From positions 392,469 to 456,468 of the forward strand of contig CAWCET010000006.1 in assembly GCA_963794635.1 (NCBI GenBank): DNA of 64,000 nucleotides. Reading direction: 5' to 3'. Position 1 is the stretch's first letter, and each line of letters begins with the position of its first letter. The translations under genes were made by a program, and so were the position numbers. Positions 12,802 to 56,704 of this stretch are shown here, piece after piece. The DNA comes from an uncultured Solirubrobacteraceae bacterium. GTDB taxonomy: Bacteria > Actinomycetota > Thermoleophilia > Solirubrobacterales > Solirubrobacteraceae. The notes under the pieces were generated by a model. It was not told the DNA's origin, did no database searches, and saw only the letters and a program-made list of their open reading frames with translations.

Positions 12802-12835
12802 GACCCGGCAAGAGTCTTCGCGCCCGCAGATCGGG

Positions 12836-12865: not shown

Positions 12866-12872
12866 CACGCCG

Positions 12873-13484
12873 ATGGCAGACGTTGCACTGGGGGTGCAGG
12901 AATCGGGCGGGCGCGAGCAGGCGCCGGCGCGGCCTGATTTCGAAGTCATCCCGCGTAAAGGCCTGATCGCCGTCGGTGTCGTGCTGGTGGCCGTGGTCGC
13001 GGCCATCGCCTCCGACAAACTCTGGCCGATCGCCTTCGTGCATTTCGTCGGCGGCGCCGCCTGGACGATCATCGACCTCTTCCTCGGGTTCGTGCTCGGG
13101 CCGATCCTCGGGAAGCTGTCGGTCCCTGCCAAAGCCGAGCTGACGACCAAGCTGATGCCGAGGATGGCGCTGATCATGCCGACGGTCGTGACGGCGACGC
13201 TTGCGGGCGGCTGGCAGCTCGGGGTGCACCTGGGGACCGTGCAGTCGAACTACTACAACCACGGCTGGGTCGTCGCGAGCTACATCGTCGTCGGCGTGAT
13301 GGCCGTGATCGCGCTGGGACTGCTCGAGCCCGCGAACATCGCGGTGCTCTTCGAGCTCAAGAAGCCACGACCGAACCCGGCTGTGATCGAGAAGCTCATG
13401 AAGAGGTTCATCTACACCGCCGGAGCGACCGGGGCGATGCAGATCGCGACGCTGGTGATCATGACGAAGCTCGCGATCGGCTGA
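12873..13484 (+). CDS. integral membrane protein, unknown function
   Basis: 203 aa with about 5 hydrophobic segments. High GC3. Confidence 0.7.
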   Translation: MADVALGVQESGGREQAPARPDFEVIPRKGLIAVGVVLVAVVAAIASDKLWPIAFVHFVGGAAWTIIDLFLGFVLGPILGKLSVPAKAELTTKLMPRMALIMPTVVTATLAGGWQLGVHLGTVQSNYYNHGWVVASYIVVGVMAVIALGLLEPANIAVLFELKKPRPNPAVIEKLMKRFIYTAGATGAMQIATLVIMTKLAIG

Positions 13485-34172: not shown

Positions 34173-37100
34173 TCAGTGGAAGCTGACCTTGGTGGTCGCG
34201 ACGGAGTGCTTGCCCTTCTTGGGCACGAACCCGACGCGGACATGTACGGTCAGCGGCTTTTTGCCCTGACCCGAGCTGGTCAGCGGCACCTTCAGCGTGA
34301 CGTTCTGGAACGCCTTCTTGGCTTTCTTCGTCGTGGTGCGCAGGTAGATGCCGCTCACGCTGACGCGACCCGCCGCCGGCACCCGAGCCGTGATGTAGAC
34401 CAGGTTGCCCACCACCTTGCGGCCCACGATCTCAACAGGGCACCCGGCCACGTTGATGATCGTGTTCTGTTTGAACGTCTTGCCGTTCTGCGCGGTCATC
34501 GTGGTCGGCATGACCAGCGATTTGGCGCAGATGTTCCCGTAGGCCGCCAGCGCGCTGTGCGAGCCGATCGGCAGTTCGACGCGGACGCTCGATACCGGGA
34601 CATCCGGCGTCGAGGCGAACGTCGTGGTGGTGATGCTGTTTTTGATGTTGGTGTTGCCGACCAGGATCACCCTGAGGTGGTTCGGGTCTTCGACGACCAG
34701 ATCGAGGTCCGGGAACGCGGCGTTCGCGTGCGAGACCAGGATCGCCGGGCCGCGCAGCGGCTGGGGCAGCGTCGGGGTTTTCACCACGGCACCGCCGACG
34801 AACGAGCCGCTCGGGCAGCGCAGCGGGTTGACGTTGAACACCTGTTCGGTGCAGGCTTTCTGCAGCGTCGTCAGCCTCGAGGGCAGCGAGCGCGGCAGCT
34901 GGACCTTGACGGACTTGATGTTCGCCTGACCCGCGGCCTGCGTCACTTCGGTGACCAGCATCGCCCCGTTCGAGCGCGAGGTCCTCGCGTTCGAGTTCGC
35001 TTTGAACTTCGGCGCGAACTTCAGGGCGCTGCAGTTGGCCACCTGGAACGGCGATTCCGCGATGCTGCTGGCGGTCGCCCCGCCCGGTTCGAGCGTCGAG
35101 AACCCGCCGACCGTCGACACGGTTTTGAACGCGCCGCAGTTGGTCGGGTTGATCATGAACCCAGGCTTGTTGACCGCGATGCTGATGTTTTTGATGCGCA
35201 GCGGCACGCCGTCGCGGATCCTCGGCAGCGTGCTTTCCACGATCACCTGCGAGGTGTACGGGTCGACCGTGATCCCTGCGCGGGTCACGACCGTGCCGAA
35301 GTTGAAGGGCCCGGCGATCGCCGGAACCTTGATCGACAGGCCGTACGGCGAGCCGTTGTAGGGACCGGTCAGGTAGACCGGGCCGCTGAACGAGAACGGC
35401 TGGCTGCCGGAGCCCGCGAGCACCGTCGCCGTGCCGATCTGGCTCGTCGTCGGGCAGGCGGCCGATTCGCTCGACGCAGCCGGTTCCTGGCAGCGTTCGG
35501 CGAGCGAGATCTTGCCGACGAGACCCGGCGGCAGCTCTGTCTTGACCGAGCTGACGTACTGTTCGCCGTCGTTGCGGGCGAGGTTGAACGTGAAGTTCGT
35601 GCTCGCACCGCCGTTGCCGTTGCTGAGCTGCGTCGACTGGCCCGGTTTGAAGGGCGGGCCGGGGTTGCAGCCGGTGATCGGCTGGCCGAACGCGTCGGCT
35701 TTCAGCGTGCCCGGCGCCGCGGTCGATTCGAACACGGCCACGCCTTTCGCTTCACCGCAGATCAGCGGGTTGGCGATCGGCGCGAGGACGTTGCGGTTGA
35801 AGCTGATCGCGAGGTTCGTGAACGGCTGTTCGGGCGGGCTGCTGAACGTCGTCGTCACCTGCCCGGTCGCCAGGTCGGGGCTGACGTGCGCCACGAGGCG
35901 CACGGACACGCCGTACTTGGGCGAGTTCGCGACCACGTACATCGTGAACGGCGGGGCCGTGATGGGCCCGCCCTGGGGCTCACCCAGGTAGGCGGCTCCC
36001 GTCAGCGAGCCGTCCGGAAGCGTCGGGACGTTCAAAGTCACGGTGCCGATCTGCGACGCGGCCGGGCACCCGACACCGAACGCTTCGGTGAATTTTTCGG
36101 TGCCTTCGATTTCGTTCGCTTCGCTCGGTTTGCAGCCCGTGAGGCCGTTCGCGGCCGACGGGTTGAGCGTCATGCCGGCCGGCAACACGAATTTCGCCTG
36201 TTTGACCTGCGAGACGTCGTTCGCTTTCGGGTTGTGTTCGATCGAGGCTTCGGCCGTGAATTCGTTCGGCGAGTCCGTCGTCGTCGTCGACGGGTGGAAG
36301 CCGAAGTTGATCGGGAATTCGAGCAGGTTGCAGCCCGTCAGGCCGATCGGGGTCGTGAACGACGACCGGGTCGAGCCGACCGTGCCGGCTTCCGGACCCG
36401 CCAGGGCCGGGCCTTCGAGCGTCAGGTTCGTCGTGAGGTGACCCGGGCAGCTCGTGGCGTTCGTGATGAAGGCGCCGTTGCCGCTCTGGCCGTAGAACGT
36501 CAGTCGCGAGCGCAGCAGCGGCGGCGACGCGGCCGCTTCGATTTCGAAGTAGTCGTGGTAGTCGGCTTCGCCGGTGCCTTTGGCTTCTTTGCCCCATTCG
36601 ACGTTGCCTTTGATCAGCGTGTGCGAGTAGTACTGGCCTTCGATGAGCGCTTTTTCCGTCGCTTTTTTGGCGGCTTCTTTTTCCGGTTTGCCGCCGGGGA
36701 ACTCCGATTCCGGCAGCGGTTCGTTTTTGAAGTGTTCCGTCAGCTCCGCTTCGGTGAGGAATTTCGGGAGTTTGACGGCGACGCCGTACAGCGCGGCGAG
36801 GTGCGGGCCGCCGGGGCGCATGGTTTCGCTTTCGCTCGCTTCGAGGTCGTAGACGAGGCCTTCGACCGGAACATCACCGAAGCCTTCGGCTTTTTCGACG
36901 TTCCCGGTGTAGATGGTGGCCTGCTGAAGGCCGATTTCGCTTTCTTCGCATGCCGCGTCAGGAGCCGCATAGAGGCCGGCCGACGCCAGCGGCGATGCTC
37001 CCGCCCCGCCTTCGTAGTCCGTCATCGAGCAGCGTTCGACCGCGAAGGGGTTGGTCGCGAGCCCCGGCGCGACATCCGTGCGGATGTGCGTCGTCGCCGC

Positions 37101-37421
37101 AGCCGGGATCTTGTCGGGGTAGTTGGTGCCGGGGATGCTCGCGACCAAGAAGTCGGTCACGCCGTAGGGCACGCGCCCGCCGGCCTGGGTGAAGCCTTCT
37201 TCTTCGGCTTCTTTGACCGTGATTTTCGCCTTCGGCTCTTCGAAGTCGAAGTGGAACGGCCCGGAGTTCGTCGCGACCGTTTCCTCGCCACATTCTTCTT
37301 CTGTGCAGTTCGTGGCGACGAACTTTTCGATCCCGATCGCCTGCGCTGCGCTTGGCAGCAGAACGGCGAGCGCGAGCCCGCAGACAAGCATCAACAACCA
37401 CACCCGTGCACGCGACCTCAT
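34173..37421 (-). CDS. 1082-aa secreted protein of repeated Cys-framed modules, unknown family
   Basis: ATG 37421 is preceded by GAGGAGGAGG. Signal peptide is MRSRARVWLLMLVCGLALAVLLPSAAQA. The internal repeated motif CP(A/T)xSQIGT occurs twice and NPxxC(G) recurs. The ORF-track start at 37604 is a 5' extension. Confidence 0.85.
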   Translation of the reverse strand: MRSRARVWLLMLVCGLALAVLLPSAAQAIGIEKFVATNCTEEECGEETVATNSGPFHFDFEEPKAKITVKEAEEEGFTQAGGRVPYGVTDFLVASIPGTNYPDKIPAAATTHIRTDVAPGLATNPFAVERCSMTDYEGGAGASPLASAGLYAAPDAACEESEIGLQQATIYTGNVEKAEGFGDVPVEGLVYDLEASESETMRPGGPHLAALYGVAVKLPKFLTEAELTEHFKNEPLPESEFPGGKPEKEAAKKATEKALIEGQYYSHTLIKGNVEWGKEAKGTGEADYHDYFEIEAAASPPLLRSRLTFYGQSGNGAFITNATSCPGHLTTNLTLEGPALAGPEAGTVGSTRSSFTTPIGLTGCNLLEFPINFGFHPSTTTTDSPNEFTAEASIEHNPKANDVSQVKQAKFVLPAGMTLNPSAANGLTGCKPSEANEIEGTEKFTEAFGVGCPAASQIGTVTLNVPTLPDGSLTGAAYLGEPQGGPITAPPFTMYVVANSPKYGVSVRLVAHVSPDLATGQVTTTFSSPPEQPFTNLAISFNRNVLAPIANPLICGEAKGVAVFESTAAPGTLKADAFGQPITGCNPGPPFKPGQSTQLSNGNGGASTNFTFNLARNDGEQYVSSVKTELPPGLVGKISLAERCQEPAASSESAACPTTSQIGTATVLAGSGSQPFSFSGPVYLTGPYNGSPYGLSIKVPAIAGPFNFGTVVTRAGITVDPYTSQVIVESTLPRIRDGVPLRIKNISIAVNKPGFMINPTNCGAFKTVSTVGGFSTLEPGGATASSIAESPFQVANCSALKFAPKFKANSNARTSRSNGAMLVTEVTQAAGQANIKSVKVQLPRSLPSRLTTLQKACTEQVFNVNPLRCPSGSFVGGAVVKTPTLPQPLRGPAILVSHANAAFPDLDLVVEDPNHLRVILVGNTNIKNSITTTTFASTPDVPVSSVRVELPIGSHSALAAYGNICAKSLVMPTTMTAQNGKTFKQNTIINVAGCPVEIVGRKVVGNLVYITARVPAAGRVSVSGIYLRTTTKKAKKAFQNVTLKVPLTSSGQGKKPLTVHVRVGFVPKKGKHSVATTKVSFH

Positions 37422-37469
37422 GCCAACCTCCTCCTCAAACGGACAGACATCCTCTACCCCTATGGAATC

Positions 37470-37493
37470 CCAAAATCCCGCAAAAGTTGCGGG
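37470..37493 (-). terminator. terminator-like hairpin between the GT39 gene and the large secreted-protein gene
   Basis: Minus strand reads CCCGCA-ACTTT-TGCGGG followed by ATTTTGGGATT. The stem is short (6 bp), so this is tentative. It could also be a leader structure. Confidence 0.35.
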
Positions 37494-37647
37494 CCTAGAC
37501 GGCCGTATTAGACGAACGCCGGGATTGTCCTTCCGTGGGCCCGGCGCCCCTCGGCGCATCCAGGCTTCTTTGAGGACGCTATTCGGATCCTCGGACACCA
37601 CCATACATGCCGGGCGGTCCGGAAACGCCGGGTTACGCGAATGTCGG

Positions 37648-39861
37648 TTAGGAGGTTGCGGCTTCGATCGCCGCGGCCTGGCCCTGGCAGTCGTAGAGCG
37701 TGCCCGCGGAGGAGCTCGAGGAGGAGGATTCCGACCCGCCGACGGTGACGCGCGTGCACGCTTTCGCGACCGCCGCGAAGGCCTTGCGAGAGCCTTCGCG
37801 CCCGTCGCCGGCGCGCCCGCCGGGGCCGCGCGCCGAGCCGGTGGAGCCCGAGCCGAACAGCGTCTGTCCGGTCCCGCCGGTGCCCGAGGAGCCCGTCGTG
37901 CCTGAGGAGCCAGAGCCGAACAGAGCCTGCCCGCCGGTGCTCGCTCCCGAGGATTCTTCGTCGAGCACCCAGCGGATCTTGCCGTCGCGGACCTCCTGGG
38001 CCAGCCAGCTCACCGAGACGCTGCTCTCGCGTCCGGAGAACCCGCCGATCCCGGCCACGTCGGCGGCGTCGGAGATGATCGAGCCGGCGGCGCTCGACTG
38101 GCTGGAGACGGCGATCGTGCCGCCCCCGTGGGCCTTGACGTAGGCGAGGACCTCGGAGCTGATCGAGTTCCCGAACGCCCCGCCGCCCGGCGCTCCGCCG
38201 CTGCGCGCGGTCCCCGACCGGGAACCGGAGCCCGCACCTCCGGGTGCGAAGCCGCCCGCGCCGGAGAACCCGCCGGGAGGGCCGAAGCCCGCGCCGGCCG
38301 TGCCTCCCGGGGGAGCGAAGGAGCCCGACCCGGCGCCGCCGCCCGGCCCGCCGCCCGCGCCGGGGCGCGCAGCGCCGCCGGGGCCGCCGAAGCCCGAGGT
38401 CGCGACGATCGAGGGGCCGCCTTCGGGGAAGCTCCCTGTCTCCGAGCGCCCGAGCGTCTGAACGGACCAGATCGCGGGGGCGACCATCAGCACGGCGCCT
38501 GCGAGCACCGCCGCGGCCAGGCGCCACGAGCGGCGCCCGGCGAACGCGAGCACGGCGGCGGCGAGGAGGGCGAGGGCGATCAGCACGGGCACGAGCCAGC
38601 GCAGCTGACCCGGGTAGTCGCCGAGCACCGCGAGCTCGGTGGCGACACCGGCCGCGATCGCGAGCGGAGCGAGGATGCGCCCGTGCTCGCGCCCGGAGGC
38701 GAAGTGCGCGACCCCGGCCCCCACCAGCGCGGCGGCGAACGGGGCGAGCAGGGAGACGTAGTAGGGGTGGAAGATGCCGCTCGCGAAGCTGAACAGCACG
38801 GCGGTGGTGACGAAGGCGCCCCCGACCGCGAGCAGCCAGCCGGTGCGCGCGTCGGTGCGGCGCAGGCGGCTCGCGAGGAGCAGGGCCAGCGCGCTGAGCG
38901 CCGCGAAGCCGAGCAGCCAGCCCCCCTGGCCTCCGAGCGCGGAGTTCAAGAGGCGCAGCGGCCCGGTCGTACCGCCGAACTGGGTGCCGCCCCCGAGGCC
39001 GCCCGGCCCACCGGCCTGGCCGTCGACCCGCCCGACGCCGTTGTATTCGAAGATCAGCGAGAGCACACGGTTGTCGCTCGTGCCGGAGATCCAGGGCCGC
39101 TGCGAGGCGGGGGTGAGTTCGACCAGCAGCGGCCACGCGCCGCCGACGATCGTCATCGCGGCGCCGCCGGCGAGCAGCTGTCCCATCGCGCGCAGCCGCG
39201 AGCGCCCGCCCGGCGCGCACCACAGCCATGCGAGCGCGATCCCGGGCACCACGACGAGGGCGACGAGCATCTTGGTCTCGAAGCCGAGGCCGACGCAGAT
39301 GCCGGCGAGGACGAGCCATCGCGTGCGGCCGTCCTCGAGCCCGCGGACGGTGAACCAGAGCGCCGCGACCGAGCAGAGCACGAGCAGCGCGTCGGGGTTG
39401 TTGTAACGGAAGATCGCGACCGTGATCGGGGTCAGCGCCAGGGCGAGGCCGGCGACCGCGCCGCCCAGGCGCCCGAAGCGGCGCCGGACGAGGTCGTAGG
39501 TGAGCCCGACCGCGGCGACGCCCATCAGCGCCTGCGGCACGAGCATCGCCAGCGGGTGGTAGCCGAAGACGCGCACCGAGAGCGCCTGCACCCACAGGGA
39601 CAGCGGCGGCTTGTCGACGGTCATGACGCCGCTCGGGTCCAGCGAGGCGAACAGGAAGTTGTGCCAGCTCGTGCTCATCGAGCGCACGGCGGCGCTGTAG
39701 TAGTCGTTCGCCCACCCGTTGCGGCTGAGCGCCCAGAGGTTCAGGACGGCGGCGAGCGCGAGCAGGCCGAGCAGCTCGGGGCGGGGGGCGCGCAGGGCGA
39801 TGCGGCGCGTGCGCTCGGAGGGCAGGCCGGTGAGGGGTGCGGTGGCGGAGGGAGAGCTCAT
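37648..39861 (-). CDS. GT39-family (ArnT/PMT_2-like) membrane glycosyltransferase with a Gly/Ser-rich C-terminal extracytoplasmic region
   Basis: 737 aa, multi-TM N-terminal half with the motif VMTVDKPPLSLWVQAL. The C-terminal ~250 aa are Gly/Ser-rich with a folded segment (VLAYVKAHGGGTIAVSSQSSAAG...IRWVL). Confidence 0.85.
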   Translation of the reverse strand: MSSPSATAPLTGLPSERTRRIALRAPRPELLGLLALAAVLNLWALSRNGWANDYYSAAVRSMSTSWHNFLFASLDPSGVMTVDKPPLSLWVQALSVRVFGYHPLAMLVPQALMGVAAVGLTYDLVRRRFGRLGGAVAGLALALTPITVAIFRYNNPDALLVLCSVAALWFTVRGLEDGRTRWLVLAGICVGLGFETKMLVALVVVPGIALAWLWCAPGGRSRLRAMGQLLAGGAAMTIVGGAWPLLVELTPASQRPWISGTSDNRVLSLIFEYNGVGRVDGQAGGPGGLGGGTQFGGTTGPLRLLNSALGGQGGWLLGFAALSALALLLASRLRRTDARTGWLLAVGGAFVTTAVLFSFASGIFHPYYVSLLAPFAAALVGAGVAHFASGREHGRILAPLAIAAGVATELAVLGDYPGQLRWLVPVLIALALLAAAVLAFAGRRSWRLAAAVLAGAVLMVAPAIWSVQTLGRSETGSFPEGGPSIVATSGFGGPGGAARPGAGGGPGGGAGSGSFAPPGGTAGAGFGPPGGFSGAGGFAPGGAGSGSRSGTARSGGAPGGGAFGNSISSEVLAYVKAHGGGTIAVSSQSSAAGSIISDAADVAGIGGFSGRESSVSVSWLAQEVRDGKIRWVLDEESSGASTGGQALFGSGSSGTTGSSGTGGTGQTLFGSGSTGSARGPGGRAGDGREGSRKAFAAVAKACTRVTVGGSESSSSSSSAGTLYDCQGQAAAIEAATS

Positions 39862-45614: not shown

Positions 45615-46064
45615 ATGCCCCGAAAGAACGACATGAGCCACCACGAGAGCAACGGACACCACAAGGCCTGCGACCCGCACGGATCGAGGACGCGCCCCGA
45701 GCGCCATCTCGACCGTCACGGCGTCGTGATCGAGATGAACACGCTCTCGCGCCTGCGCGTCCAGCACGAGGACCGGCCCCTGCGCTGCGTCTCCTCCGGC
45801 TACATGTCGGGCGGCTGCTCCTGCAGCGCCGTCGTCCCCGCCGCCGTCGTCCAGGCGGTGTGGGCGCGCGAGCTGGCGCGCACGGCGACCCCCGGGGGCT
45901 GCTTCTTCCGCTTCGCCTGGCGCGGCGAGCAATGGCTGGCCTTCGGGCTGGCCAACGGTCACATCAGGGGCGTCTACTGCCCCACCCACCGCGCCGAGCG
46001 CGATGCCCGCACCGCCGGCCGCGAGGCCCGTCACCCCGAGCGGCCGGCGCGGGCAGCCGCCTGA
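45615..46064 (+). CDS. hypothetical His/Cys-containing protein (149 aa)
   Basis: Very strong GC3 bias across the ORF. N-terminal His-rich stretch (MSHHESNGHHKACDPHG) and a CSC motif. No family recognised. Confidence 0.55.
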   Translation: MPRKNDMSHHESNGHHKACDPHGSRTRPERHLDRHGVVIEMNTLSRLRVQHEDRPLRCVSSGYMSGGCSCSAVVPAAVVQAVWARELARTATPGGCFFRFAWRGEQWLAFGLANGHIRGVYCPTHRAERDARTAGREARHPERPARAAA

Positions 46065-46171: not shown

Positions 46172-47917
46172 TCATGGGACCTTGACCCCCGGCGTCGCAG
46201 GCACCTGAACCGTCACGCCGGGAACGGTCACGCTCGGCACCGTCACCGCCCCGACGCTGACCTGCGGCGTCGTCACGGACGGCGTGCTGAGCGGCGGGAC
46301 CTTCGTCGCCGGCACTTCCACCGAGGGCACTTCGACGGCCGGCACTTTCACCGGCGGCGCTTTCACGGGCGGCACGCCCGGCGGCAGGGGCACCTCGACC
46401 GCGGGCCCTTCGGTTTTTCCTTCCGCGACCGGCGGCGTGCTCTGGCCGCCACCGCCTGAGGAAACCGGCGTGGAGCCCGTCTGGCTCGCGGGCGGGCTCG
46501 TACCGGTCGCCCCCGGTGTGGTGGTGCCCGCGCCCGGCGCGCTCGCGCCGGGGCGCCCGCTGCCCTCACGGCGCACCGGCACCGTGCCTGCGCGTTGCGG
46601 CGGCGTCGCCAGGCCGCCCGGTGACGAAGCCCCGCCGGCACCCTGCAGCCCTCCGGGGAAGCCCGGCTGCAACGCGGACGATCCGGGCGCGGCGGCCTTC
46701 GGGTTCTTTTCATAGCGCGCGTCCGGGGTCAGCGCCAGCACCCCTGCGGCCCCGACGGCCGGCAGTATGCCCGCGAGCGACGCGCCCCCGAGCAGGCCGC
46801 CCGGAAGCAGCTGGAACGCCGCGGCGACCCGAGCCGAGAGCGCACCCGCGAGCGAGACCCCGGCGATCGAGCGCCGAGCCGAGTAGCTGCGCCGGAACGC
46901 GTCCACCGCCCCTGCGTCGAGCAGCCTGCCGCGCTCCGCTTCGAGCACCGCCAGCGCCTCGCGCTGACTGCGCGCGCGCCGGTACGGGCGGTGAGAGGTG
47001 ATCGCGTCGAACGTGTCCGCGACGGCGATGATGCTCGCGCCGAGCGGTATCCCGGACCCGCTCAGCCCGTCGGGATAGCCGCTTCCGTCGATGCGCTCGT
47101 GATGGTGGCGGACGATCGTCACCAGCTGGAGGTCGTGGACCGGCGCGAGCATGTCGGCGCCGTCGGCGGCGTGGCGCTTGACGATCTCGAACTCCTCGTC
47201 CTCGAGCGGGCCCTGCTTGTGCAGTATCTCCGTCGGCGTGTAGACCTTGCCGACGTCGTGCACGAGCGCCGCCGTGCGGATCTCGGCGATCTGGGCCGGG
47301 GTCAGCCTCATCTCGCGGGCGATCCGTTCCGCGTGCCGCGCGACGCGCCGGCAGTGCCCGTAGGTGTAGGGGTTGCGGATCTCGAGCAGGTGCGCGAGGC
47401 CTTCGAGCAGCTCGACCCGCACCGCCCCGTCCTCGCCGATCGCGTCGCGGTACGTCGCGCCGACCTGCTTGAGCCGGTGCTCGGCCCACAGCCGGCGGGC
47501 GAAGCCCCAGAGCATCAACTCGCCGTAGGCGACACCCCGCGCGCCGTGGACCCGCGTCCACGCCCAGGACTCCGAGACGGCGAGCGCCAGCGAGAGGACG
47601 GCTGCGAGGCCGACCGCGGCCACCGTCGCGGCCACCCCGTGTGGAGGAACGAGCGCGTCCGCCGCCAGCGCGGGAACGACCGTGACGCTGAGCGTCACGA
47701 GCACCGCCGGCGGCAGATAGCGGATGAAGCTGCCCGGAAGCTCGTGCCACGGGACCCGGTCGCGGGCGGGCTTGCGTCTCCGCGCCTCCGCCTGCGCCGG
47801 GCCCCGGGTACGGGATCTGCCGTGTCGCGGGCCGGGCGTCGAGCGCCGGCCTAGTGCCGGCCGTCGCTCATGACGCTCGTCCTCACGCCGCAGGAGGGGT
47901 TGCGACGGGGTCGACAT
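46172..47917 (-). CDS. membrane-anchored HD-GYP c-di-GMP phosphodiesterase with a Pro/Val/Thr-rich C-terminal tail
   Basis: LVHDVGK (HD) and HHHERIDGSGYPDGL (HHExxDGxGYP). Hydrophobic segments lie both before and after the catalytic domain. The last ~76 aa are V-x-V-P-x type repeats. Confidence 0.85.
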   Translation of the reverse strand: MSTPSQPLLRREDERHERRPALGRRSTPGPRHGRSRTRGPAQAEARRRKPARDRVPWHELPGSFIRYLPPAVLVTLSVTVVPALAADALVPPHGVAATVAAVGLAAVLSLALAVSESWAWTRVHGARGVAYGELMLWGFARRLWAEHRLKQVGATYRDAIGEDGAVRVELLEGLAHLLEIRNPYTYGHCRRVARHAERIAREMRLTPAQIAEIRTAALVHDVGKVYTPTEILHKQGPLEDEEFEIVKRHAADGADMLAPVHDLQLVTIVRHHHERIDGSGYPDGLSGSGIPLGASIIAVADTFDAITSHRPYRRARSQREALAVLEAERGRLLDAGAVDAFRRSYSARRSIAGVSLAGALSARVAAAFQLLPGGLLGGASLAGILPAVGAAGVLALTPDARYEKNPKAAAPGSSALQPGFPGGLQGAGGASSPGGLATPPQRAGTVPVRREGSGRPGASAPGAGTTTPGATGTSPPASQTGSTPVSSGGGGQSTPPVAEGKTEGPAVEVPLPPGVPPVKAPPVKVPAVEVPSVEVPATKVPPLSTPSVTTPQVSVGAVTVPSVTVPGVTVQVPATPGVKVP

Positions 47918-47974
47918 GGCTCATCGATGCTACGGCCCGACATGAGCCCCGTGGCCTCGGGCCGGACGTATGTA

Positions 47975-48919
47975 CTAAGCCGGCCCGTAGCCGATCAGAA
48001 CGAGGCTCTCGAGCGCCCCGTCAACGCCGCGCTCGGCGGCCGTCACCTGCTGGCGGGCTGAGTCGTAGGCCGAGACGGCTTCCGATTCGGACGCTCCCGC
48101 CAATTCGCCGTAGGCCTTGCTCGCCGCGCTCAGCGACTGCGAGAGCTGGACCTGGGCGGCCGCTGCGGGAGCCGGCGCTTCGAGCGTGGAGATCGTCGCC
48201 GCCGCGTGCTGGTAGCGGGCCGCGAGCGAGCGCGCCGGCGCGACCACCGACGCGGGCGACGCGCTCTCGGCGAGCTGCTTGCGCGCAGCCACGCGCGCGG
48301 CGTCGAGCGCCGAGACGGCCGGCGCGAGCACGCCCGCGTAGGTGGCGGAAGGCGTCAGGGTCATCGCGGCGGCTCCGGTCAGCGTGACGTTGGCGACGAT
48401 CCGCTCGCATTCCTGTCCCGCCTTCGTGAATCGCTGCGGCTCGAAGCACGCGAGCAGGCGCGTCCCGGAGGCGGACGGGATCGCGTAGAGGTCGAGGACG
48501 CCTGCATAGCCGGGCAGGCTGATGTCGCTGTAGCGGTAGGCCTGGGTCGAGACCAGCGAGACGACTTCGGCGTGCGGCGTCGCGCTCAGACGTTCGAGGA
48601 AGCTCGCCGGAAGCGGCGACGCGCCGCCCGAGGGCAGCATCCCGCTCAGCAGGCCCGAGGAGCTCTGGCCGTGCGGGGAGAGGGTGACCGCTTCGTTCAG
48701 AGCGAGCCCCGGGATCGACTTCGGCGTGCTGGAGTGCTGCCAGGAGACGGGGTATTCGAGCACGAGGCCGGCGGTGTTCTCGACCTGCGCCGGGCCGGCG
48801 GCCGCGCCCTGACCCGAGGAGGGCGCGACGCGATGGCTGCCGATGAGGTACCCGAACACGGCCGCCGCCAGCAGCGCGGCCACGATCAGCGGGTGCACCA
48901 CGCGTGCCGGGGCGTCCAC
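47975..48919 (-). CDS. N-terminally membrane-anchored protein, unknown function (314 aa)
   Basis: Single TM (HPLIVAALLAAAVFGYLIG) followed by a ~280-aa soluble region. It lies 3 nt downstream of the preceding gene. Confidence 0.65.
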   Translation of the reverse strand: MDAPARVVHPLIVAALLAAAVFGYLIGSHRVAPSSGQGAAAGPAQVENTAGLVLEYPVSWQHSSTPKSIPGLALNEAVTLSPHGQSSSGLLSGMLPSGGASPLPASFLERLSATPHAEVVSLVSTQAYRYSDISLPGYAGVLDLYAIPSASGTRLLACFEPQRFTKAGQECERIVANVTLTGAAAMTLTPSATYAGVLAPAVSALDAARVAARKQLAESASPASVVAPARSLAARYQHAAATISTLEAPAPAAAAQVQLSQSLSAASKAYGELAGASESEAVSAYDSARQQVTAAERGVDGALESLVLIGYGPA

Positions 48920-48922
48920 GCG

Positions 48923-49420
48923 TCAGCCCGAGCTTTCGAACGAGGTCCCGGAGCCCGAACCAGAGCCGCCGGAGGAATGGGGAGCCGGGGACGGGCTGGG
49001 CGCAGGAGCCGTCGGTTTGCTGACTTCCGGCGCAGGCGTGACCGGGGTCACCGTCGGGGTGGGCGCGGGCGTCGAGACGGCCGGCGTCGTCGGCGTGACC
49101 GTCGGCGTGACCGTCGGGGTCACCGCCGGCTGGGAGCTCTTGGCGGGCACGCTCGGTTTGGGCGCCGGCGGCGCCGGGCGCACGACGGCGAGCTTGATCG
49201 CGGGTGCCGCGACAAGCGCTGCCGGAACCGGGGTGGAAACGGCGGGCAGGCGCGGCGGGGTGCGTTCCACCACCGCTTCGCCCGAGCGGCGGATGTGGCC
49301 GACGCCGAACGCGGCGGCGAAGACGGCGGCGATCGCGGCGCACCAGATCGCGACCCGCCGCGGCTCGAATCGGCGTCCGACGGGGCGGGTCCTGCGTCGC
49401 TCGAGGGGGTGCGTGCTCAT
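48923..49420 (-). CDS. membrane-anchored Pro/Thr-rich protein (165 aa)
   Basis: The ATG at 49420 overlaps the upstream stop (ATGA). TM is VAIWCAAIAAVFAAAFGVG, followed by TPTVTPTVTPTTPAVSTPAPTPTVTPVTP. Confidence 0.6.
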   Translation of the reverse strand: MSTHPLERRRTRPVGRRFEPRRVAIWCAAIAAVFAAAFGVGHIRRSGEAVVERTPPRLPAVSTPVPAALVAAPAIKLAVVRPAPPAPKPSVPAKSSQPAVTPTVTPTVTPTTPAVSTPAPTPTVTPVTPAPEVSKPTAPAPSPSPAPHSSGGSGSGSGTSFESSG

Positions 49421-50790
49421 GAGGAGGGGCAGACGATCGGGGCTTCTCCCGTGCTCAGGCAGTTGTCGGTCCTTCTGGGGAGCTTGCCACGCCGCGGCAC
49501 GAAGCGCGTCAACTTGCCGATCTGGCCCGCTTTGGTGACGCGGATTTCCAGCACGGCCCCCGCCGCGAGCGAGTGCGCGAAGCGCGGGAACGAGAGCAGC
49601 GCGGTGCCGGGAGTGTCCGACTGCTTGGTGGCCGTGGCGACGCGGCTCTGCGAGGTCGTGCGCACGCCCGTGCCGCGGATCCGCACGGTCACCCGCGCCG
49701 AGATCGGAGCGGAGACCGTCACGAGCGTGAGCTTGACGCCGCCGGGGGTCTCCCGCCCGGCGATTCTGACGATCGGGAACGGTTCCATCAGCGTCGCAGC
49801 CTGATGGTGGACCACGATCGTCTGCGTGGAGGTCGCCGAGCGGCCGGCCGCGTCGGTGACCTGGAGCCGGACGACGTGGGCGCCCGGCGTCGAGAAGGTC
49901 GTCGTCGTCGTCGCGTGGCCGGTGTGGAACGGTTCGGTCGCGGTCAGCCCCCAGGCAAAGGTCGTGATCGGCGAGTTCGCGTCGGTGGCGCTCGAGACGA
50001 GCGTGACGGTTTCGCCGACGCGGGGCTGTTCGGGGAACCACGTGAAGGAGGCCGACGGCGGTGGCGGCGGCGGCTGGGCCAGCACCGTGATCGCGACCGG
50101 GCCGCTGGTGCCGACGTTGCCGGCCGCGTCGCTCTGCTGGGCCTGAAGGGTGTAGCTGCCGGGCGCGAGCCCGGCGAGCGCGCCGGACCAGGAGCCTCCG
50201 GCGGCGGCCATTTCGACGGACTCGATCGGTGCGGCTGCGAGCTCGGCGCCCGCGAAGACGTCGACGAGGACGCTTTCACGGTCGCCCGGCGCCGTGCCCG
50301 CGGCGCCGCTGACGGGAATCGCGCCCGTGTAGTACCTCGCGCCGGGGGAGGGGGAGGAGATGGAGGGGGACGGAGCCGTGGTGTCGACCGTGAACGTGAC
50401 GGGCGAGCTCTTGCTCGCTTCCTGTTCTTCGACGTTCTCTTCCGCGACGATCGTGTAGACGCCGGCCGTGAGCGGCTTTTCGAGCGCCGCGTCCCAGTCG
50501 GTGCAGGTTTCCGAGCCGAGGGCCGCTCGGTCGACGACAGGACCTTCAGCTGCGGTCCCTTCGTAGACCCTCACCGTCACTTCGCACCACCCGCTGGCGT
50601 CTGGTTCGAGCGCACCGACGATCGCCGGGTCCGTTTCATGGACGTATGAGCCCGTGGTCGGGCTCACGATCCGCAGGGTCGGCGCGGCTGCCGAGGCGCT
50701 TCCCGCGCTCAGAGCCAGCATGCAGCTCGCCGCGGCGGCGATCCCTGCCAGCCGTCCGAGCACGGGCGCTGTCGATCTGATCAGGCGCAC
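49417..50790 (-). CDS. secreted protein: 2 Ig-like repeats + PKD domain + unassigned C-terminal module
   Basis: The GTG start overlaps the upstream stop by 10 nt. Signal peptide ends ...LSAGSASAAAP. PKD-like segment is FTWFPEQPRVGETVTLVSSATD...VRLQVTDAAGRS. The C-terminal 120 aa are shared with the upstream gene. Confidence 0.8.
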   Translation of the reverse strand: MRLIRSTAPVLGRLAGIAAAASCMLALSAGSASAAAPTLRIVSPTTGSYVHETDPAIVGALEPDASGWCEVTVRVYEGTAAEGPVVDRAALGSETCTDWDAALEKPLTAGVYTIVAEENVEEQEASKSSPVTFTVDTTAPSPSISSPSPGARYYTGAIPVSGAAGTAPGDRESVLVDVFAGAELAAAPIESVEMAAAGGSWSGALAGLAPGSYTLQAQQSDAAGNVGTSGPVAITVLAQPPPPPPSASFTWFPEQPRVGETVTLVSSATDANSPITTFAWGLTATEPFHTGHATTTTTFSTPGAHVVRLQVTDAAGRSATSTQTIVVHHQAATLMEPFPIVRIAGRETPGGVKLTLVTVSAPISARVTVRIRGTGVRTTSQSRVATATKQSDTPGTALLSFPRFAHSLAAGAVLEIRVTKAGQIGKLTRFVPRRGKLPRRTDNCLSTGEAPIVCPSS

Positions 50791-53700
50791 GGGATCGGTT
50801 TCGGTTCGGTCGAGCTGACGCAGGCATCCGAGCGGAGCGGGAGCCTGCCCTTGCGAACTGCAAAGCGCGTGTACTTGCCGATCCTCCCCGCCTCGGTGAT
50901 CCTGATTTCAAGCGCCACCCCCGCCGGCAGAGCGCGCTGGAGTCTCGGGAACGTGAGCACGGGCAGGCCCGTGGACTTGCCCTTCGGCCGGACGACGGCA
51001 CGCGAGAGGGTGCGTACCGGGCAGCCCGTGCCCTTGCAGACGACCGTGACGTTCGCCCCGGCGGGCGCTTCGACGCTCAGCACCTTCAGATGCAGGCGAC
51101 CACCCGAGCGCGTCGTGAGGATGCGCACCGTGGGGAAGGGATGCATCAACGGGAAGCTGACCGGGATCTGCTGCAGGGAGACGCCCGAACGGCCCGTCCC
51201 GTCGGTGACTCGCAGCTGAACCGGGTGGTTTCCGGGAGTGGTGAAGGTGATCGTGCGACGCTGGGCACCGGGCGTGAAGCCCGTGCCCATGAGGTTCCAC
51301 GCGTAGCTGGCGATCGGGCTCGTCGCGTCGCTCGAAGTGGAGACCAGCGTTACGAGTTCACCGGTGCGAGGGTGTGACGGGAACCAGCTGAAGCCGACGG
51401 TCGGCCCTCCCGCGGGCGAGGAATCCGTCACGTCGGTGAAGGAGTGCGCGCTCGTGCCCACGTTGCCGGCTTCATCGCTCTGGGAGACGAGCACCGTGTA
51501 CTGGCCGGGCACGAGCCCGCCGAGGGTGGCCGACCACTCGCCGCCGGCGGCGAGGACGGTGACCGTCTGCGCGGCAGTGCCTGCAGCGGATCCGCCCGCG
51601 AACAGCTGCACCGTCACGGCGTTCAGATCGTGGGCGGCCGTTCCCGAGGTCCCGTGGAAGGAGACCGTTGAGCCGCTGACGGTCGCGCCCTGGGCGGGCG
51701 CCTGAACGGACACGATCGGCGCCACGGTGTCGATGGTGAAGTCCTGCGGGGCCGTTGCGCCCGTCGAGCCGCCCAGGGTCTTCTGCCAAGCGACGGCCTC
51801 GTATTCGCCGTCGGCCAACGGCTGCGTGAGCGTGGCCGACCAATCGCCCCCTGCCGCGGACACGGCTTCAGGTTCTCTGGGTTCGGCCTTGCATTCGGCC
51901 GTCGGGAGCTTGCAGATGGCCACGTGAACCGGCGTCGTTTCGCTCGCGGTCCCGGTGAAGGTCGGCGTCGAGGTGTCCAGCTGTGCTTTGACCAGGGCCA
52001 GCGTGACGCTCGGCGCCAGCGGATCGACGATGAATTCGAACTTCGCGACACCTGCTTCATTGCCGAGCGAGCTCGCCTGGGTGGCCGTCGCCGTATAGCT
52101 CGCTTTGGTCGACGGAAGCGTCAGCTTCCCGGCGGGGATGGACCACGCGCCGCCGCTCACCGGAACTGTTTCTTTGAAGACTTCTTTCCCTCCGGGCAGC
52201 TTCACGACGAACGTCACCGGCCCGGTGTCGCTCGCTGTGCCGCTGAAGGACGGTTTCGTTTCTTTGGAAGGCGTCGCGATCGGCGTGATCGTCACCGTCG
52301 GCGGCAGCGTGTCGAGGACGTAGGGCGATTCCGCCCGGCCTTCCGGGTTGCCGGGGATGCTGCTCTGCTCGGTCGCGAGGATGGTGTAGGTGTGTTCTCC
52401 GGCCGGGAGCTCGGGCGAGACGGAGCCCGTTTCCCATTTCGTGCCGCTGGGGGTCGCTTCGGCCACCGCGACCTGGTGGCCTCCTTCGAGCACCTGCACG
52501 ACGACCCGCTTCGTGTCGCTCGTCGTCCCCGAGAACCTGGGCGAGCGTTCGTTCGAGGGCGACCTGAACGGTTTGAGCGTGAGCGCGGGCGCCGCCGTGT
52601 CCACGACGAAGTGGACTTCTCCGCTGCGACCCGTGCCGTTGCCGAACCCGCCCGTCTGTTCGGCGACCGCCGTGTAGCTGCCGTCGCCGAGCGCCGGGCT
52701 CGTCGCACCGGAGCTCCACGACGCCCCGGTACCGCTCGCGTGAGCTTCGGCCACCAGCGCCCCCGCGGCGTTGCCGCCCGCGTAAACGTGCACCGTGACC
52801 GGCGTGCTTTCGCTCGCGAACCCGCTGAAGGACGGGGCGGCGTCGTTGCTCGGGGTCGCGATCGCCGCCATCGAGACGCTCGGCGGGGACGTTTCGACCG
52901 TGAAGTGGATCGCGCCGCTGACGCCCGGCCCGTTCCCGAAGCCGCTTTCCTGTTCGGCCACCGCCGTGTAGCTGCCGTTCGCCAGCGCGGGCGAAGCGGG
53001 TCCGGAATTCCACGACCCCCCCGTACCGGATGCCTGCGCTTCCGCCACTGGGCTTCCGCCCGCAGAGCCGCCGTCGTAGATGCGGACCACCACCGTCGAG
53101 CCTTCGCTCGCGCTGCCGCTGAACGACGGCGTGCGGTCGTCGGTCGGGGAGGAGATGCCGTTGAGCGAGACGCTCGGCTTGGACGCGTGCACCTCGAAGG
53201 TCGTCGGCTCGCTGAAGCCCGCTTCGTTGCCGATCGAGCTCCTCTGTTCGGCGATCGCCGTGTAGGTCCCGTCGCCCAGCGGCCCCACCGAGGACGAGGA
53301 CCACGCGCCGCCGCTCGGGTTCGCCGAGACCTCCGCCGCGAGCGAACCTCCCGGCGAGGACCCTCTGAACACGTAGACGGTCACAGGTTCGCTCGGGTCG
53401 CTCGCGGTCCCGCTGAAGGACGGCGTCGAGTCGTTCGTCGGCGACGGGATCCCGTTCAGGCTCACTTCCGGGCTGCGCGTCTCGACCGTGAAGCCGACCG
53501 GTCCCGCATGCGCGGTTTCGCCGGTGAGCGTTTCGGTCTGTTCGGCTTCGACGCTGTAGCTCGCTTCCCCGAGCTCGGAGGGCAGCTGCAGCGACCAGCC
53601 GCCACCGCCGTTGGGTGTCGTCTGCGCGCTTTCGTAGAAGGAGCCGTTCCTGAAGACCGTGACGGTCACGGCGTCTTCGGTGTCGCTGGAGAAGCCCGAG

Positions 53701-53843
53701 AAGACCGGGTGCGTGTCGCCGGTCACTTCGCCGGAGCTCGGCGATTCGATCGAGACGAACGGCGCCGCCAGGGCAGGAGCAACCGACGTGGCAAATGCCA
53801 CGGCCGTCAGAAGCAGCCCCGCAAGCAGGGCGCGTTCGATCAT
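50781..53843 (-). CDS. secreted protein: 8 tandem Ig-like repeats + PKD domain + unassigned C-terminal module (1020 aa)
   Basis: ATG 53843 is preceded by AGGAGA. Signal peptide is MIERALLAGLLLTAVAFATSVAPALAAP. Repeats carry the motif P.FSG.ASD...V.V......G..WS.......L.DG.Y...A.Q....GN. Confidence 0.85.
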   Translation of the reverse strand: MIERALLAGLLLTAVAFATSVAPALAAPFVSIESPSSGEVTGDTHPVFSGFSSDTEDAVTVTVFRNGSFYESAQTTPNGGGGWSLQLPSELGEASYSVEAEQTETLTGETAHAGPVGFTVETRSPEVSLNGIPSPTNDSTPSFSGTASDPSEPVTVYVFRGSSPGGSLAAEVSANPSGGAWSSSSVGPLGDGTYTAIAEQRSSIGNEAGFSEPTTFEVHASKPSVSLNGISSPTDDRTPSFSGSASEGSTVVVRIYDGGSAGGSPVAEAQASGTGGSWNSGPASPALANGSYTAVAEQESGFGNGPGVSGAIHFTVETSPPSVSMAAIATPSNDAAPSFSGFASESTPVTVHVYAGGNAAGALVAEAHASGTGASWSSGATSPALGDGSYTAVAEQTGGFGNGTGRSGEVHFVVDTAAPALTLKPFRSPSNERSPRFSGTTSDTKRVVVQVLEGGHQVAVAEATPSGTKWETGSVSPELPAGEHTYTILATEQSSIPGNPEGRAESPYVLDTLPPTVTITPIATPSKETKPSFSGTASDTGPVTFVVKLPGGKEVFKETVPVSGGAWSIPAGKLTLPSTKASYTATATQASSLGNEAGVAKFEFIVDPLAPSVTLALVKAQLDTSTPTFTGTASETTPVHVAICKLPTAECKAEPREPEAVSAAGGDWSATLTQPLADGEYEAVAWQKTLGGSTGATAPQDFTIDTVAPIVSVQAPAQGATVSGSTVSFHGTSGTAAHDLNAVTVQLFAGGSAAGTAAQTVTVLAAGGEWSATLGGLVPGQYTVLVSQSDEAGNVGTSAHSFTDVTDSSPAGGPTVGFSWFPSHPRTGELVTLVSTSSDATSPIASYAWNLMGTGFTPGAQRRTITFTTPGNHPVQLRVTDGTGRSGVSLQQIPVSFPLMHPFPTVRILTTRSGGRLHLKVLSVEAPAGANVTVVCKGTGCPVRTLSRAVVRPKGKSTGLPVLTFPRLQRALPAGVALEIRITEAGRIGKYTRFAVRKGRLPLRSDACVSSTEPKPIPCA
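51426..53762 (-). repeat. eight tandem ~95-100-aa Ig-like coding repeats
   Basis: Repeat boundaries, read from the translation in ORF numbering, are about aa 62, 156, 255, 353, 451, 547, 642 and 741-840. Copies 2-4 are the most similar to each other. Confidence 0.8.
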
Positions 53844-53970
53844 TCTCCTAGGCCTCAAGGGAGACCCGCCATTGTTTGATCTGTCTCCAAGCCGGGTCCC
53901 CCGGCTGGCTCCGACACCCCTCCAGGTGCCCCTTGGAGCCTCCATTGCGGAATCTGTTCCGCTGGGTCAA

Positions 53971-53999
53971 ATCATAAGCGCGAAACGCGTCTACCGCAA
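53971..53999 (-). promoter_or_regulatory. putative sigma70-type promoter for the Ig-repeat operon
   Basis: Minus strand reads TTGCGG (53999-53994), 17-nt spacer, TATGAT (53976-53971). This would give a leader of about 120 nt. Confidence 0.35.
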
Positions 54000-54087: not shown

Positions 54088-54548
54088 ATGTTGCGCTTCG
54101 TTCCCTTGTCAAAGCTGCTTCGAGCGGCGTCGGGTTGGCGCCTGTCTGCACTCTGCGCGGCCACCTGCGCCGCCGCCCTCAGCCCAGCGGCGCAGGCGCG
54201 AACCGCGGACCACACGCCGCCTGAATTCGCCGGCCTGGCTTCGGCCACGACGTGCATCCCGGGCCCGTCGGCCCGGGGATCGCGACCAGCTACCACCTGA
54301 GCTGGGAAGCGGCCAGCGACAACCACACCAAGCCGAAGCGGATCGTCTACGCGATCTACCAGGCGACCCGGCCCGGCGGCGAGGACTTCTCACAGCCGAC
54401 CTACATCTCCAAGCACGGCGCGACGAGCTTCGAAACGCCGAAGCTGCCTTCGAGCGAGAGCTGGTTCTTCGTGGTGAGGGCCCGCGACCGCGCCGGCAAC
54501 GAAGACTCGAACACCGTCGAGCGCGAAGGCGTGAACCTCTGCGTCTGA
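54088..54548 (+). pseudogene. signal-peptide FN3-like protein split by an apparent -1 frame change (or sequence error)
   Basis: ATG 54088 has a strong SD (GGGAGGA) and a signal peptide (…ALCAATCAAALSPAAQA). That frame stops at 54300. The domain continues in the -1 frame from ~54264 (…SYHLSWEAASD…FVVRARDRAGNED…), around the cccgggcccg run. Confidence 0.55.
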
Positions 54549-56056: not shown

Positions 56057-56062
56057 CTACAG

Positions 56063-56152
56063 CGGAGGGGGGGAGATTCGAACTCCCGGTACGCCAATCA
56101 GACGCACAACGGTTTTCGAGACCGCCGCATTCAACCGCTCTGCCACCCCTCC
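56063..56152 (-). tRNA. tRNA-Ser (anticodon CGA), class II with a long variable arm
   Basis: GGAGGGGTGGCAGAGCGGTTGAATGC...GGTCTCGAAAACC...GGGAGTTCGAATCTCCCCCCCTCCG. The 7-bp acceptor stem pairs, the T-loop is TTCGAAT, and the anticodon loop is CT-CGA-AA. No encoded CCA. Confidence 0.9.
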
Positions 56153-56238
56153 GGGTGGATGCCCGACAAGGCTAGATGATCCAGTCGCCGGCGCGAAGGA
56201 CCGCCCGGCGCACCGCGGCCTCGCTGCCCCGCACGCCT

Positions 56239-56704
56239 CTAGCGGCGCGCGGCGAAGAACGCGCTCAGCAGACGCGCCGCACTCCTCGCCCAGGAGCCCT
56301 CCGGCGACATCAGGGCGGTGGTTCAGGCGCGGCTCGCCGAGCACGTCGAGAACGCTGCCGCACGCGCCCGCCTTCGGATCGCGCGCGCCGTAGACGACGC
56401 GCGGCAGCCGCGCGAGCACCAGCGCACCCGCGCACATCGCGCACGGCTCGAGCGTCACGTAGAGGACCGCGTCGAGGACGCGCCAGCTGCCGTCGTGGAG
56501 CGCGGCCTCGCGCAGCGCCAGCACCTCGGCGTGTGCGGTGGGATCCTGTCGCAACTCGCGCTCGTTGTGCCCGGTGGCGATGACCTCCCCGTCGCGCACG
56601 ATCACCGCGCCGATCGGCACGTCGTCGTGTTCAAGAGCAAGCGCGGCCTCGCGCAGGGCGAGGCGCATGAAGTAGTCCTCGCGTGGGAAGAAGTGGTCGG
56701 TCAT
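56239..56704 (-). CDS. tadA: tRNA adenosine(34) deaminase TadA, with an apparent 1-nt frame disruption near the 3' end
   Basis: HAEVLALREA and TLEPCAMCAGAL zinc motifs. After ...GGLLGEECGA the listed frame runs on through the tRNA to 56057. The +1 frame instead gives LLSAFFAARR-TAG (stop 56239-56241), which matches the canonical TadA C-terminus. Confidence 0.8.

Follow-up and report, generated by a model that had tools for sequence, protein, structure and literature searches.

A conserved cell-envelope gene cassette of Solirubrobacteraceae with a shared C-terminal module, a structured leader RNA and an accessory HD-GYP gene

Two described kinds of surface-protein system come closest to the locus considered here. 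In the Lap system of Pseudomonas (LapA, LapD, LapG, LapEBC), a large adhesin with immunoglobulin (Ig)-like repeats of the Big_13/Ca_tandemer type is encoded together with membrane proteins and is genetically linked to the turnover of cyclic di-GMP (c-di-GMP). Sortase-dependent LPXTG adhesins and pili of Gram-positive lineages combine secreted Ig-like arrays with a C-terminal element that is conserved and a Pro-rich segment that spans the wall. Features of both kinds are found in a gene cassette on a 64,000-nucleotide (nt) stretch of DNA from an uncultured Solirubrobacteraceae bacterium (assembly GCA_963794635.1, contig CAWCET010000006.1, positions 392,469 to 456,468), referred to below as the window. 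The family belongs to the class Thermoleophilia of the Actinomycetota; Solirubrobacterales are abundant soil Actinomycetota and, to our knowledge, their cell-surface biology is almost unknown. The analysis is computational throughout, and the loci compared come from this single bacterial order. The cassette can be classed as an adhesin locus with second-messenger and RNA control, and appears to be a chromosomal, lineage-specific cell-envelope unit of the Solirubrobacteraceae, the function of which we infer.

The cassette and its accessory neighbour comprise five genes in one orientation:

50781..53843, minus strand: g1, 1020 amino acids (aa), with a signal peptide, eight Big_13 Ig-like repeats, a PKD domain and a basic C-terminal module
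49417..50790, minus strand: g2, a 457-aa paralogue of g1 with a signal peptide, two Big_13-like units, a PKD domain and the C-terminal module
48923..49420, minus strand: g3, a 165-aa bitopic membrane protein
47975..48919, minus strand: g4, a 314-aa bitopic membrane protein
46172..47917, minus strand: g5, a predicted 581-aa membrane HD-GYP phosphodiesterase, the accessory neighbour

All five open reading frames (ORFs) lie where an earlier note on this DNA had placed them, and direct reading of the sequence bore out the junctions it had given: g1 and g2 overlap by 10 nt, g2 and g3 share an ATGA overlap, and gaps of 3 nt and 57 nt separate g3 from g4 and g4 from g5. The G+C content of the 64-kb window is approximately 72%. 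Among the five genes, only g1 has a good Shine–Dalgarno sequence (AGGAGA), which backs its start at 53843. A longer, 1054-aa ORF for g1, starting at 53945, was rejected, as its ATG is unconserved and relatives carry 1-nt indels and in-frame stop codons.

One or two secreted Big_13/PKD proteins followed by g3 and g4, with the same overlaps, form a core unit that recurs in more than 60 Solirubrobacterales loci. Judged from this recurrence, the conserved unit is a three- or four-gene core, not a five-gene operon. Of the five-gene operon described in the earlier note, the recurrent and translationally coupled g1–g4 part therefore stands, and the HD-GYP gene, missing in about half of the loci, does not. 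Sixteen g4 loci were found in a scan of species-representative genomes, all in metagenome-assembled genomes (MAGs) of Solirubrobacteraceae or Solirubrobacterales; the scan used a narrower alignment, the 34-sequence alignment being too divergent. In these 16 loci, and in L002 and L003, a g3-like gene lies directly upstream of each g4, and before it come one or two genes for large proteins that end in the C-terminal module after a PKD domain. Even at protein identities as low as 40-50%, both the ATGA overlap and a 2-3-nt gap between g3 and g4 are retained, and the recurrence of the same overlaps in related loci indicates that the arrangement is not due to chance. Mining of metagenomic neighbourhoods with the C-terminal module as query, which the earlier note had proposed, gave 80 loci, 57 of them informative; in 44 of these the module is followed directly by the tail motif of g3 and by g4.

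The usual flanks are an S8 peptidase, TadA and a tRNA-Ser on one side and SnoaL, an aldose epimerase and two S51 peptidases on the other. It might be argued that the genes are neighbours only through vertical inheritance, with no functional unit beyond two paralogous adhesins. The flanking housekeeping genes do keep the same order in nearly all loci, and the homologues all come from Solirubrobacterales. Pure synteny is nevertheless very improbable in our estimation: the 4-nt and 2-3-nt junctions survive at the protein identities given above, the g1(g2)-g3-g4 block persists in L002 and L003 amid different flanks, and g5 is cleanly gained or lost between g4 and a convergent gene, whereas g3 and g4 are never split from an adhesin gene. 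Cassette genes are frameshifted or fused in five loci (L005, L010, L013, L016 and L019), for instance in L010, where g1 and g2 run together, and in L013 and L016, where g4 is broken in two; long-read assembly errors in the MAGs, rather than pseudogenes, are the most likely cause.

The products of g1 and g2 are predicted to be Sec-exported acidic Ig-like arrays with a constant end, in which a PKD domain is followed by a basic β-sandwich. Their N-termini are hydrophobic and end in AxA. The domains that the earlier note had assigned to g1, g2 and g5 were recovered with Pfam and NCBIfam; g3 and g4 matched nothing in either library, and for g4 the Pfam search stayed empty up to E ≤ 10. In Pfam, Big_13 covers eight stretches of g1 with a score of 183.6 bits and reaches 45.9 bits in g2, and PKD is above its cut-off in both. 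Across their last 360 residues the two proteins are 45% identical, and this region includes a C-terminal part of approximately 125 aa without a domain assignment, here called the C-module:

50784..51155, minus strand: C-terminal module of g1, a predicted β-sandwich with an isoelectric point (pI) of 11.5 and a terminal Cys...Cys loop
49420-49800, minus strand: C-terminal module of g2, homologous to that of g1

Orthologues of g1 range from ~1020 to ~1950 aa through variation in repeat number, and g2 is missing from the single-adhesin loci L002, L012, L019, L020 and L104. In L002 the N-terminal array is composed of I-set/Ig_3 domains, with the PKD domain and the C-module still present. The AlphaFold2 model of the C-module (predicted local distance difference test score (pLDDT) of 88) is an all-β, eight-strand β-sandwich. 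The C-modules are very basic (pI 11.5-11.8), whereas the remainder of g1 and g2 is acidic (pI 4.4-4.5), and both proteins end in a soluble ...C(x10)C loop.

The C-module defines a large family. Its profile matches at least 3,140 representatives of 50%-identity clusters, 1,364 of them at E ≤ 1e-10; this family size comes from an exhaustive profile search, and a word-index search gave just 8 fragments. All but two of the 150 matches listed carry the module at the extreme C-terminus, a placement characteristic of anchoring or sorting domains. Among 60 sampled members, Big_13 is present in 54 and PKD_4 in 48. Comparison of the C-module with the Protein Data Bank (PDB) gave no fold match at E ≤ 1e-3 and no sequence match, and comparison with Pfam gave nothing better than E 0.005, that one to an unrelated domain of unknown function (DUF). 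A match of the g2 module to DUF6420 was rejected as noise (17 bits with a cut-off of 25; unseen among the 60 family members). The earlier observation that the locus has no sortase, LPXTG motif, usher or secretion ATPase was upheld for the g1–g4 unit: no LPXTG-like motif was found in the cassette proteins, and no sortase domain in the cassette, its syntenic neighbours or the large window ORFs scanned.

The g3 protein has a conserved Arg-rich cytoplasmic N-terminus, a single transmembrane (TM) segment, a conserved juxtamembrane segment (ERTPPRLPAV.TPVPAAL..AP.I), a Pro/Thr-rich stalk that is variable between relatives (24% Pro) and a conserved C-terminus with the motif GTSF(E/D)SSG. This C-terminal motif recurs directly upstream of g4 in dozens of loci. 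The g4 protein, which likewise has one TM segment, has 68 homologues at 35-91% identity, none of them functionally named and with Solirubrobacteraceae MAGs as the only organism labels. Its AlphaFold2 model (pLDDT 86) comprises a TM helix, a β domain (residues 44-180) and a four-helix bundle (residues 192-311). On the basis of Foldseek similarity to solved members, residues ~44-180 are predicted to adopt a PsbP/Mog1-like fold (PsbP, E 1e-4; CyanoP, E 1.6e-3; Mycobacterium tuberculosis Apa, E 1.2e-3; BT_1490, E 7e-5), with a Foldseek probability of 1.0 and modest TM-scores of 0.3-0.5 (0.45-0.53 for PsbP when normalized by target). A Cys pair in the β domain is invariant in the alignment of homologues, which fits an extracytoplasmic location, and the ectodomain is acidic (pI 5.4). 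The helical half (residues ~190-311) is weakly similar, in profile comparison with the PDB, to the four-helix-bundle ligand-binding domains of chemoreceptors (E 0.06-0.08); Foldseek places PcaY_PP (E 0.18) among many generic helical bundles.

The reading that we favour, tentatively and as something a little short of an even chance, is that g3 and g4 make up a docking platform by which Ig arrays ending in the C-module are displayed on the cell surface without a sortase. The two proteins would form this platform in the membrane, with the Pro/Thr-rich stalk of g3 spanning the wall to present its conserved acidic F(E/D)SSG end, and with the acidic ectodomain of g4, PsbP-like domain and four-helix bundle together, sitting at the membrane. 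Either protein, or both, would hold the basic C-module, placing the Ig arrays at the surface. Two properties of g4 are counted in favour of docking: the charge complementarity between its ectodomain and the C-modules, and a PsbP/Mog1-like fold, which it shares with Apa, an envelope protein of mycobacteria. Also in favour are the co-occurrence seen with either g4 or the C-module as query, the persistence of the unit amid other flanks and with an exchanged N-terminal array, the conserved junctions, the conserved ends and variable stalk of g3, and the terminal position of the C-module.

Several points weigh against sortase-independent display. Thirteen of the 57 informative C-module loci, including a 'QQxPAGAR' subfamily and a few decayed copies, are without g3 and g4, so the C-module can work without the adjacent pair. 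Conservation is in part vertical synteny, as the loci belong to one order and mostly share their flanks. Sensor domains, too, typically have folds such as those of g4. About half of the loci have no HD-GYP gene, and the leader RNA described below occurs both with and without it. Finally, the basic domain could bind anionic wall polymers directly.

This last point leads to an alternative that we consider rather unlikely, in which the C-module itself binds anionic wall polymers or membrane lipids, and g3 and g4 serve in export, folding, assembly chaperoning or the building of a coat resembling a surface layer. GW, CWB2 and SLH domains are functional parallels for wall binding. Direct binding is consistent with the high pI of the C-module, with the C-module proteins that occur away from a g3/g4 pair and with the PsbP/Mog1-like match of g4; proteins of this fold, such as PsbP and the mycobacterial LpqN/Apa group, are often assembly or adaptor factors. 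The C-module, however, resembles no known wall-binding domain in the Pfam and PDB comparisons, and direct binding accounts neither for the conservation of the peptide at the C-terminus of g3 nor for the close pairing of g3 with g4.

The DNA upstream of g1 is more conserved than the coding regions, and carries a conserved promoter and a structured leader RNA that the earlier note does not mention:

53994..53999, minus strand: putative -35 hexamer TTGCGG, 17 nt upstream of the -10 hexamer, conserved in 12 aligned loci
53971..53976, minus strand: putative -10 hexamer TATGAT (TATCAT in relatives), with TAT[CG]AT invariant in 12 loci
53844..53966, minus strand: structured 5' leader RNA of ~125 nt with five predicted helices, directly upstream of g1

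The upstream conservation begins at the -35 hexamer. A strict promoter scan found nothing, and the cassette promoter is put forward at the level of consensus. The minimum free energy of the window leader is -59.3 kcal/mol, compared with -46.5 +/- 3.4 for shuffled sequences (z = -3.7; none of 200 shuffles as stable). In each of 14 loci, three of them without an HD-GYP gene (L001, L015 and L105), a covariance model of the leader detects a single copy, which always abuts the start of g1; the covariance search found none in the single-adhesin loci or in L003. In the five-helix structure 93-94% of cells are paired, compared with 34-53% for slid partners, and compensatory changes occur in seven pairs, a number reached by none of 500 shuffles; these pairing counts lean towards the structure because four of the five helices served in fitting the alignment, the fifth lying outside the model. 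Conservation is strongest in three elements: the near-invariant hairpin GGCACCUGGAGGGGUGYC, an invariant GGAGAC in a single-stranded stretch, and a further hairpin directly beside the Shine–Dalgarno sequence.

Other candidate features of the leader were rejected. A helix P4 (GGAGAC/GUCUCC) lacks its 3' strand in L001, L015 and L018, and the hairpin adjacent to the Shine–Dalgarno sequence was substituted for it. An upstream ORF in the leader (ATG-GCG-GGT-CTC-CCT-TGA) is not kept in L006, L007 and L016, and weak leader-like matches in L072 and L095 were lost under the improved model.

No Rfam 15 family matches the leader, whether the limit is set at the gathering score or E ≤ 1; relaxing it to E ≤ 10 brings up nothing beyond chance matches to models of animal microRNAs and long non-coding RNAs. 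A c-di-GMP riboswitch was rejected, as no Rfam c-di-GMP class, including c-di-GMP-I and c-di-GMP-II, was found anywhere in the window. The pattern of conservation suits a protein- or ribosome-binding element acting on translation or stability at least as well as it suits a metabolite riboswitch. A structured leader with a 5'-proximal hairpin and Shine–Dalgarno-like elements recalls the stabilized mRNAs of abundant surface proteins, a resemblance that would suit direct wall binding by the C-module. The putative promoter and the leader drive a translationally coupled g1-g2-g3-g4 unit; in the favoured display reading, the leader would set its translation or mRNA stability.

The g5 product is a predicted HD-GYP c-di-GMP phosphodiesterase with an intact HHExxDGxGYP motif. 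It matches PF13487 HD_5 with 135.3 bits (cut-off 27.2) and PF01966 HD with 77.4 bits, and contains the motifs GHCRRVARH, HDVGK and HHHERIDGSGYPDGL, the core residues of which are invariant among orthologues. Two TM segments joined by a minimal loop, leaving almost no ectodomain, precede the HD-GYP domain, which is followed by one hydrophobic segment and a Pro/Val-rich tail with VTVPSVTVPxVTV repeats. Paralogues at ~45% identity, of equal length and with the same TM pattern and VTVPS-repeat tail, sit in unrelated contexts; the tail was accordingly rejected as a cassette-specific adaptation. Solirubrobacteraceae possess a large paralogous family of such membrane HD-GYP proteins of ~540-590 aa (P0276, P0327, P0264). 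Their tails comprise a disordered Pro-rich region and short (V/I)(S/T)(T/V)PS-type repeats, for example VTVPSVTVPSVTV, and the tail (46172-46700 in g5) is better conserved than the linker that precedes it.

Searches with tblastn place g5 after g4 in 11 of the 16 genome loci, and an orthologue at 50% identity is still found within the cassette. Of the 25 informative metagenome loci, eight have an HD-GYP-like gene no more than 800 nt from g4, and in three more it is one gene further away. On the g4 tree, the HD-GYP type of the window is limited to its own clade and is patchy within it (present in L017 and L018, absent from the sisters L001, L019, L012, L020 and L015), which implies repeated loss. 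The same place is occupied in a second clade by a 231-aa HD-GYP gene together with a convergent GGDEF-HD-GYP sensor gene, and in a third clade by a multi-TM, 439-aa HD-GYP gene. As no further HD-GYP gene was found in the window and the genome-derived loci screened (~0.4 Mb), the recurrence beside g4 is unlikely to be due to chance.

Internal promoters had been named beforehand in the earlier note as evidence against a single unit, and a candidate was found in the spacer between g4 and g5:

47927..47932, minus strand: -10-like TAGCAT, 9 nt before the g5 ATG, fitting TANNNT

The g4-g5 spacers are 55-57 nt long and have no Shine–Dalgarno sequence before g5. TAGCAT is kept in 11 of 12 of them, as is a TAG(A/T)ACA(A/T)ACGTCC block at the g4 stop codon. 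From this pattern we infer, and only infer, a putative separate, near-leaderless promoter of g5. A hairpin or terminator in the spacer was rejected, as RNAalifold gave no consensus and single folds compared with shuffles had z from -2.1 to +0.6. In our view g5 is accessory and probably has a promoter of its own; it is not an obligate fifth member of the operon. The earlier note had tied the expression or function of the whole assembly to c-di-GMP hydrolysis. That claim is loosened by the optional nature of g5 and by its own -10-like element; a looser functional tie of the cassette to c-di-GMP remains likely, because three types of HD-GYP gene adjoin g4 in three clades. In the display reading, the enzyme would be transcribed at least partly alone and, where present, would link local c-di-GMP turnover to the surface structure.

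A different use of the same genes would be an envelope sensor, in which g3 and g4, the latter with no output domain, sense a ligand, the wall or the status of the adhesin and signal through intramembrane contacts to the HD-GYP protein, with g1 and g2 as regulated cargo. Such a sensor would be in keeping with the recurrence of HD-GYP genes of three architectures beside g4, with the minimal loop between TM1 and TM2 of g5, and with the resemblance of the g4 helical half to chemoreceptor four-helix bundles (profile E 0.06; Foldseek PcaY_PP). That resemblance is below significance, however, and g3 and g4 lack a neighbouring c-di-GMP enzyme in about half of the loci. Translational coupling joins g3 and g4 to the adhesin genes, not to g5 with its own -10-like element, and paralogues built like g5 function in unrelated settings. 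We regard the sensor as unlikely.

Other genes around g5 and in the wider region bear on c-di-GMP signalling or on gene order. A PAS-PAS-GGDEF diguanylate cyclase (8210-10066, plus strand) and a PAS-GAF-SpoIIE phosphatase (1588-3819, minus strand) lie ~36-44 kb from the cassette, so that further c-di-GMP signalling genes are found in the same chromosomal region. In L104, a locus without HD-GYP, the gene after g4 (11435-13117) belongs to the Phosphodiest (PF01663) family of nucleotide pyrophosphatases/phosphodiesterases. A small convergent ORF without a Pfam match stands beside g5 in the window (45615-46064, plus strand), and in L001, L101, L105 and L106 the corresponding place after g4 or g5 is taken by small genes (124-137 aa) on the opposite strand. 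It is precisely between g4 and this small convergent gene that the HD-GYP gene is present or absent.

A gene resembling PMT_2/YkcB-type protein O-mannosyltransferases (PMT; 37648-39861, minus strand) is syntenic 6-8 kb downstream of the cassette, and is also found in L001 (17961-20204) and L101 (from 15655). Thr/Pro-rich sequences such as the g3 stalk and the g5 tail are of the kind that PMT-type enzymes glycosylate in Actinobacteria. The PMT-like gene adjoins an orphan ORF (34173-37604, minus strand) in which an internal Met is followed by a clear signal peptide (MRSRARVWLLMLVCGLALAVLLPSAAQA), giving a predicted secreted protein of ~1083 aa from that Met. Pfam gave nothing for this ORF up to E 0.1, and the stretch around it is the one part of the window with a lower G+C content (65-67% compared with ~72%).

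On the other side, a 98-aa ORF (54252-54548, plus strand) is divergent from g1. It has the look of a lone Ig/FN3-type domain, with a weak Big_13 match (E 0.21) and no signal peptide, and is kept in L005, L007, L008 and L016 (tblastx 190-208 bits) and absent in L001, L009 and L011. Further upstream, a tRNA-Ser(CGA) gene has the same orientation as the cassette (window, 56062-56152, minus strand; L001, 3040-3129; L009, 2996-3088; L011, 2418-2507; L008, 4171-4264). Its distance to the leader start is 50-100 nt in L001, L009 and L011, ~670 nt in L008 and ~2.1 kb in the window, and this varying gap between tRNA and promoter has the appearance of an insertion hot spot. The TadA ORF of the window (56057-56704) reads through the tRNA-Ser without a stop codon.

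Searches of Pfam, NCBIfam, Rfam, the PDB and the literature returned no description of this combination, in agreement with the impression recorded in the earlier note. Three unannotated protein families (the C-module, g3 and g4) and one RNA absent from curated libraries are all conserved and are genetically locked together. If g3 and g4 do anchor C-module proteins, the cassette would represent a new form of sortase-free protein display for Gram-positive cells, a categorically new mechanism, and would give a role to thousands of 'hypothetical' proteins of soil metagenomes. A search for a new regulator or ligand could start from the leader RNA, and the HD-GYP genes that recur beside the cassette open a rare way into c-di-GMP signalling in Thermoleophilia. 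The fullest version of the proposal remains doubtful: it would have an undescribed Thermoleophilia anchoring system in which the C-module (>3,000 clusters) docks variable Ig arrays on a g3 stalk and g4 receptor, under the control of a new structured class of leader RNA and, in many lineages, of a co-located c-di-GMP phosphodiesterase.

Each part of the cassette can be set beside a described counterpart. The leader resembles the c-di-GMP-I and c-di-GMP-II riboswitches and adhesin leaders in being a structured, conserved 5' leader before a surface-protein operon near c-di-GMP enzymes. Unlike those riboswitches, it is best conserved in a hairpin and in GGA single strands, not in multi-helix junctions, and it is also present in loci without an HD-GYP gene. 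With RpfG-type proteins g5 shares the full HD and HHExxDGxGYP signature; it differs in having no receiver domain, and in its two N-terminal TM segments, extra hydrophobic segment and VTVPS-repeat tail. The β domain of g4 shares the fold of PsbP/Mog1-fold proteins and, like Apa, g4 is actinobacterial and extracytoplasmic. However, it falls outside the Pfam families of the clan, is anchored by a TM segment and is fused to a four-helix bundle.

The C-module recalls the type IX C-terminal domain of Bacteroidota, a small C-terminal β-sandwich on many secreted proteins, often after PKD or Ig domains. The two have no sequence or fold match, and the host of the cassette is an actinomycetote without the outer-membrane Por machinery. 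The C-module is, moreover, strongly basic and has a terminal disulfide loop.

Of the two systems closest to the cassette, Lap differs in its host and in its means of retention. The cassette belongs to a monoderm bacterium, and its c-di-GMP component is an HD-GYP protein that is optional and probably transcribed separately. No gene for a LapG-type protease, a LapD-type GGDEF-EAL receptor or type I secretion was found among the five genes or their conserved neighbours. Retention in Lap is by an N-terminal plug, whereas in the cassette retention, if any, would be by the C-terminal module. Compared with sortase/LPXTG adhesins, the cassette has its stalk on a separate protein, g3, and lacks the LPXTG motif, the hydrophobic segment with charged tail and a sortase at the locus. 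Any anchoring of the cassette proteins would instead be non-covalent, to dedicated membrane proteins.

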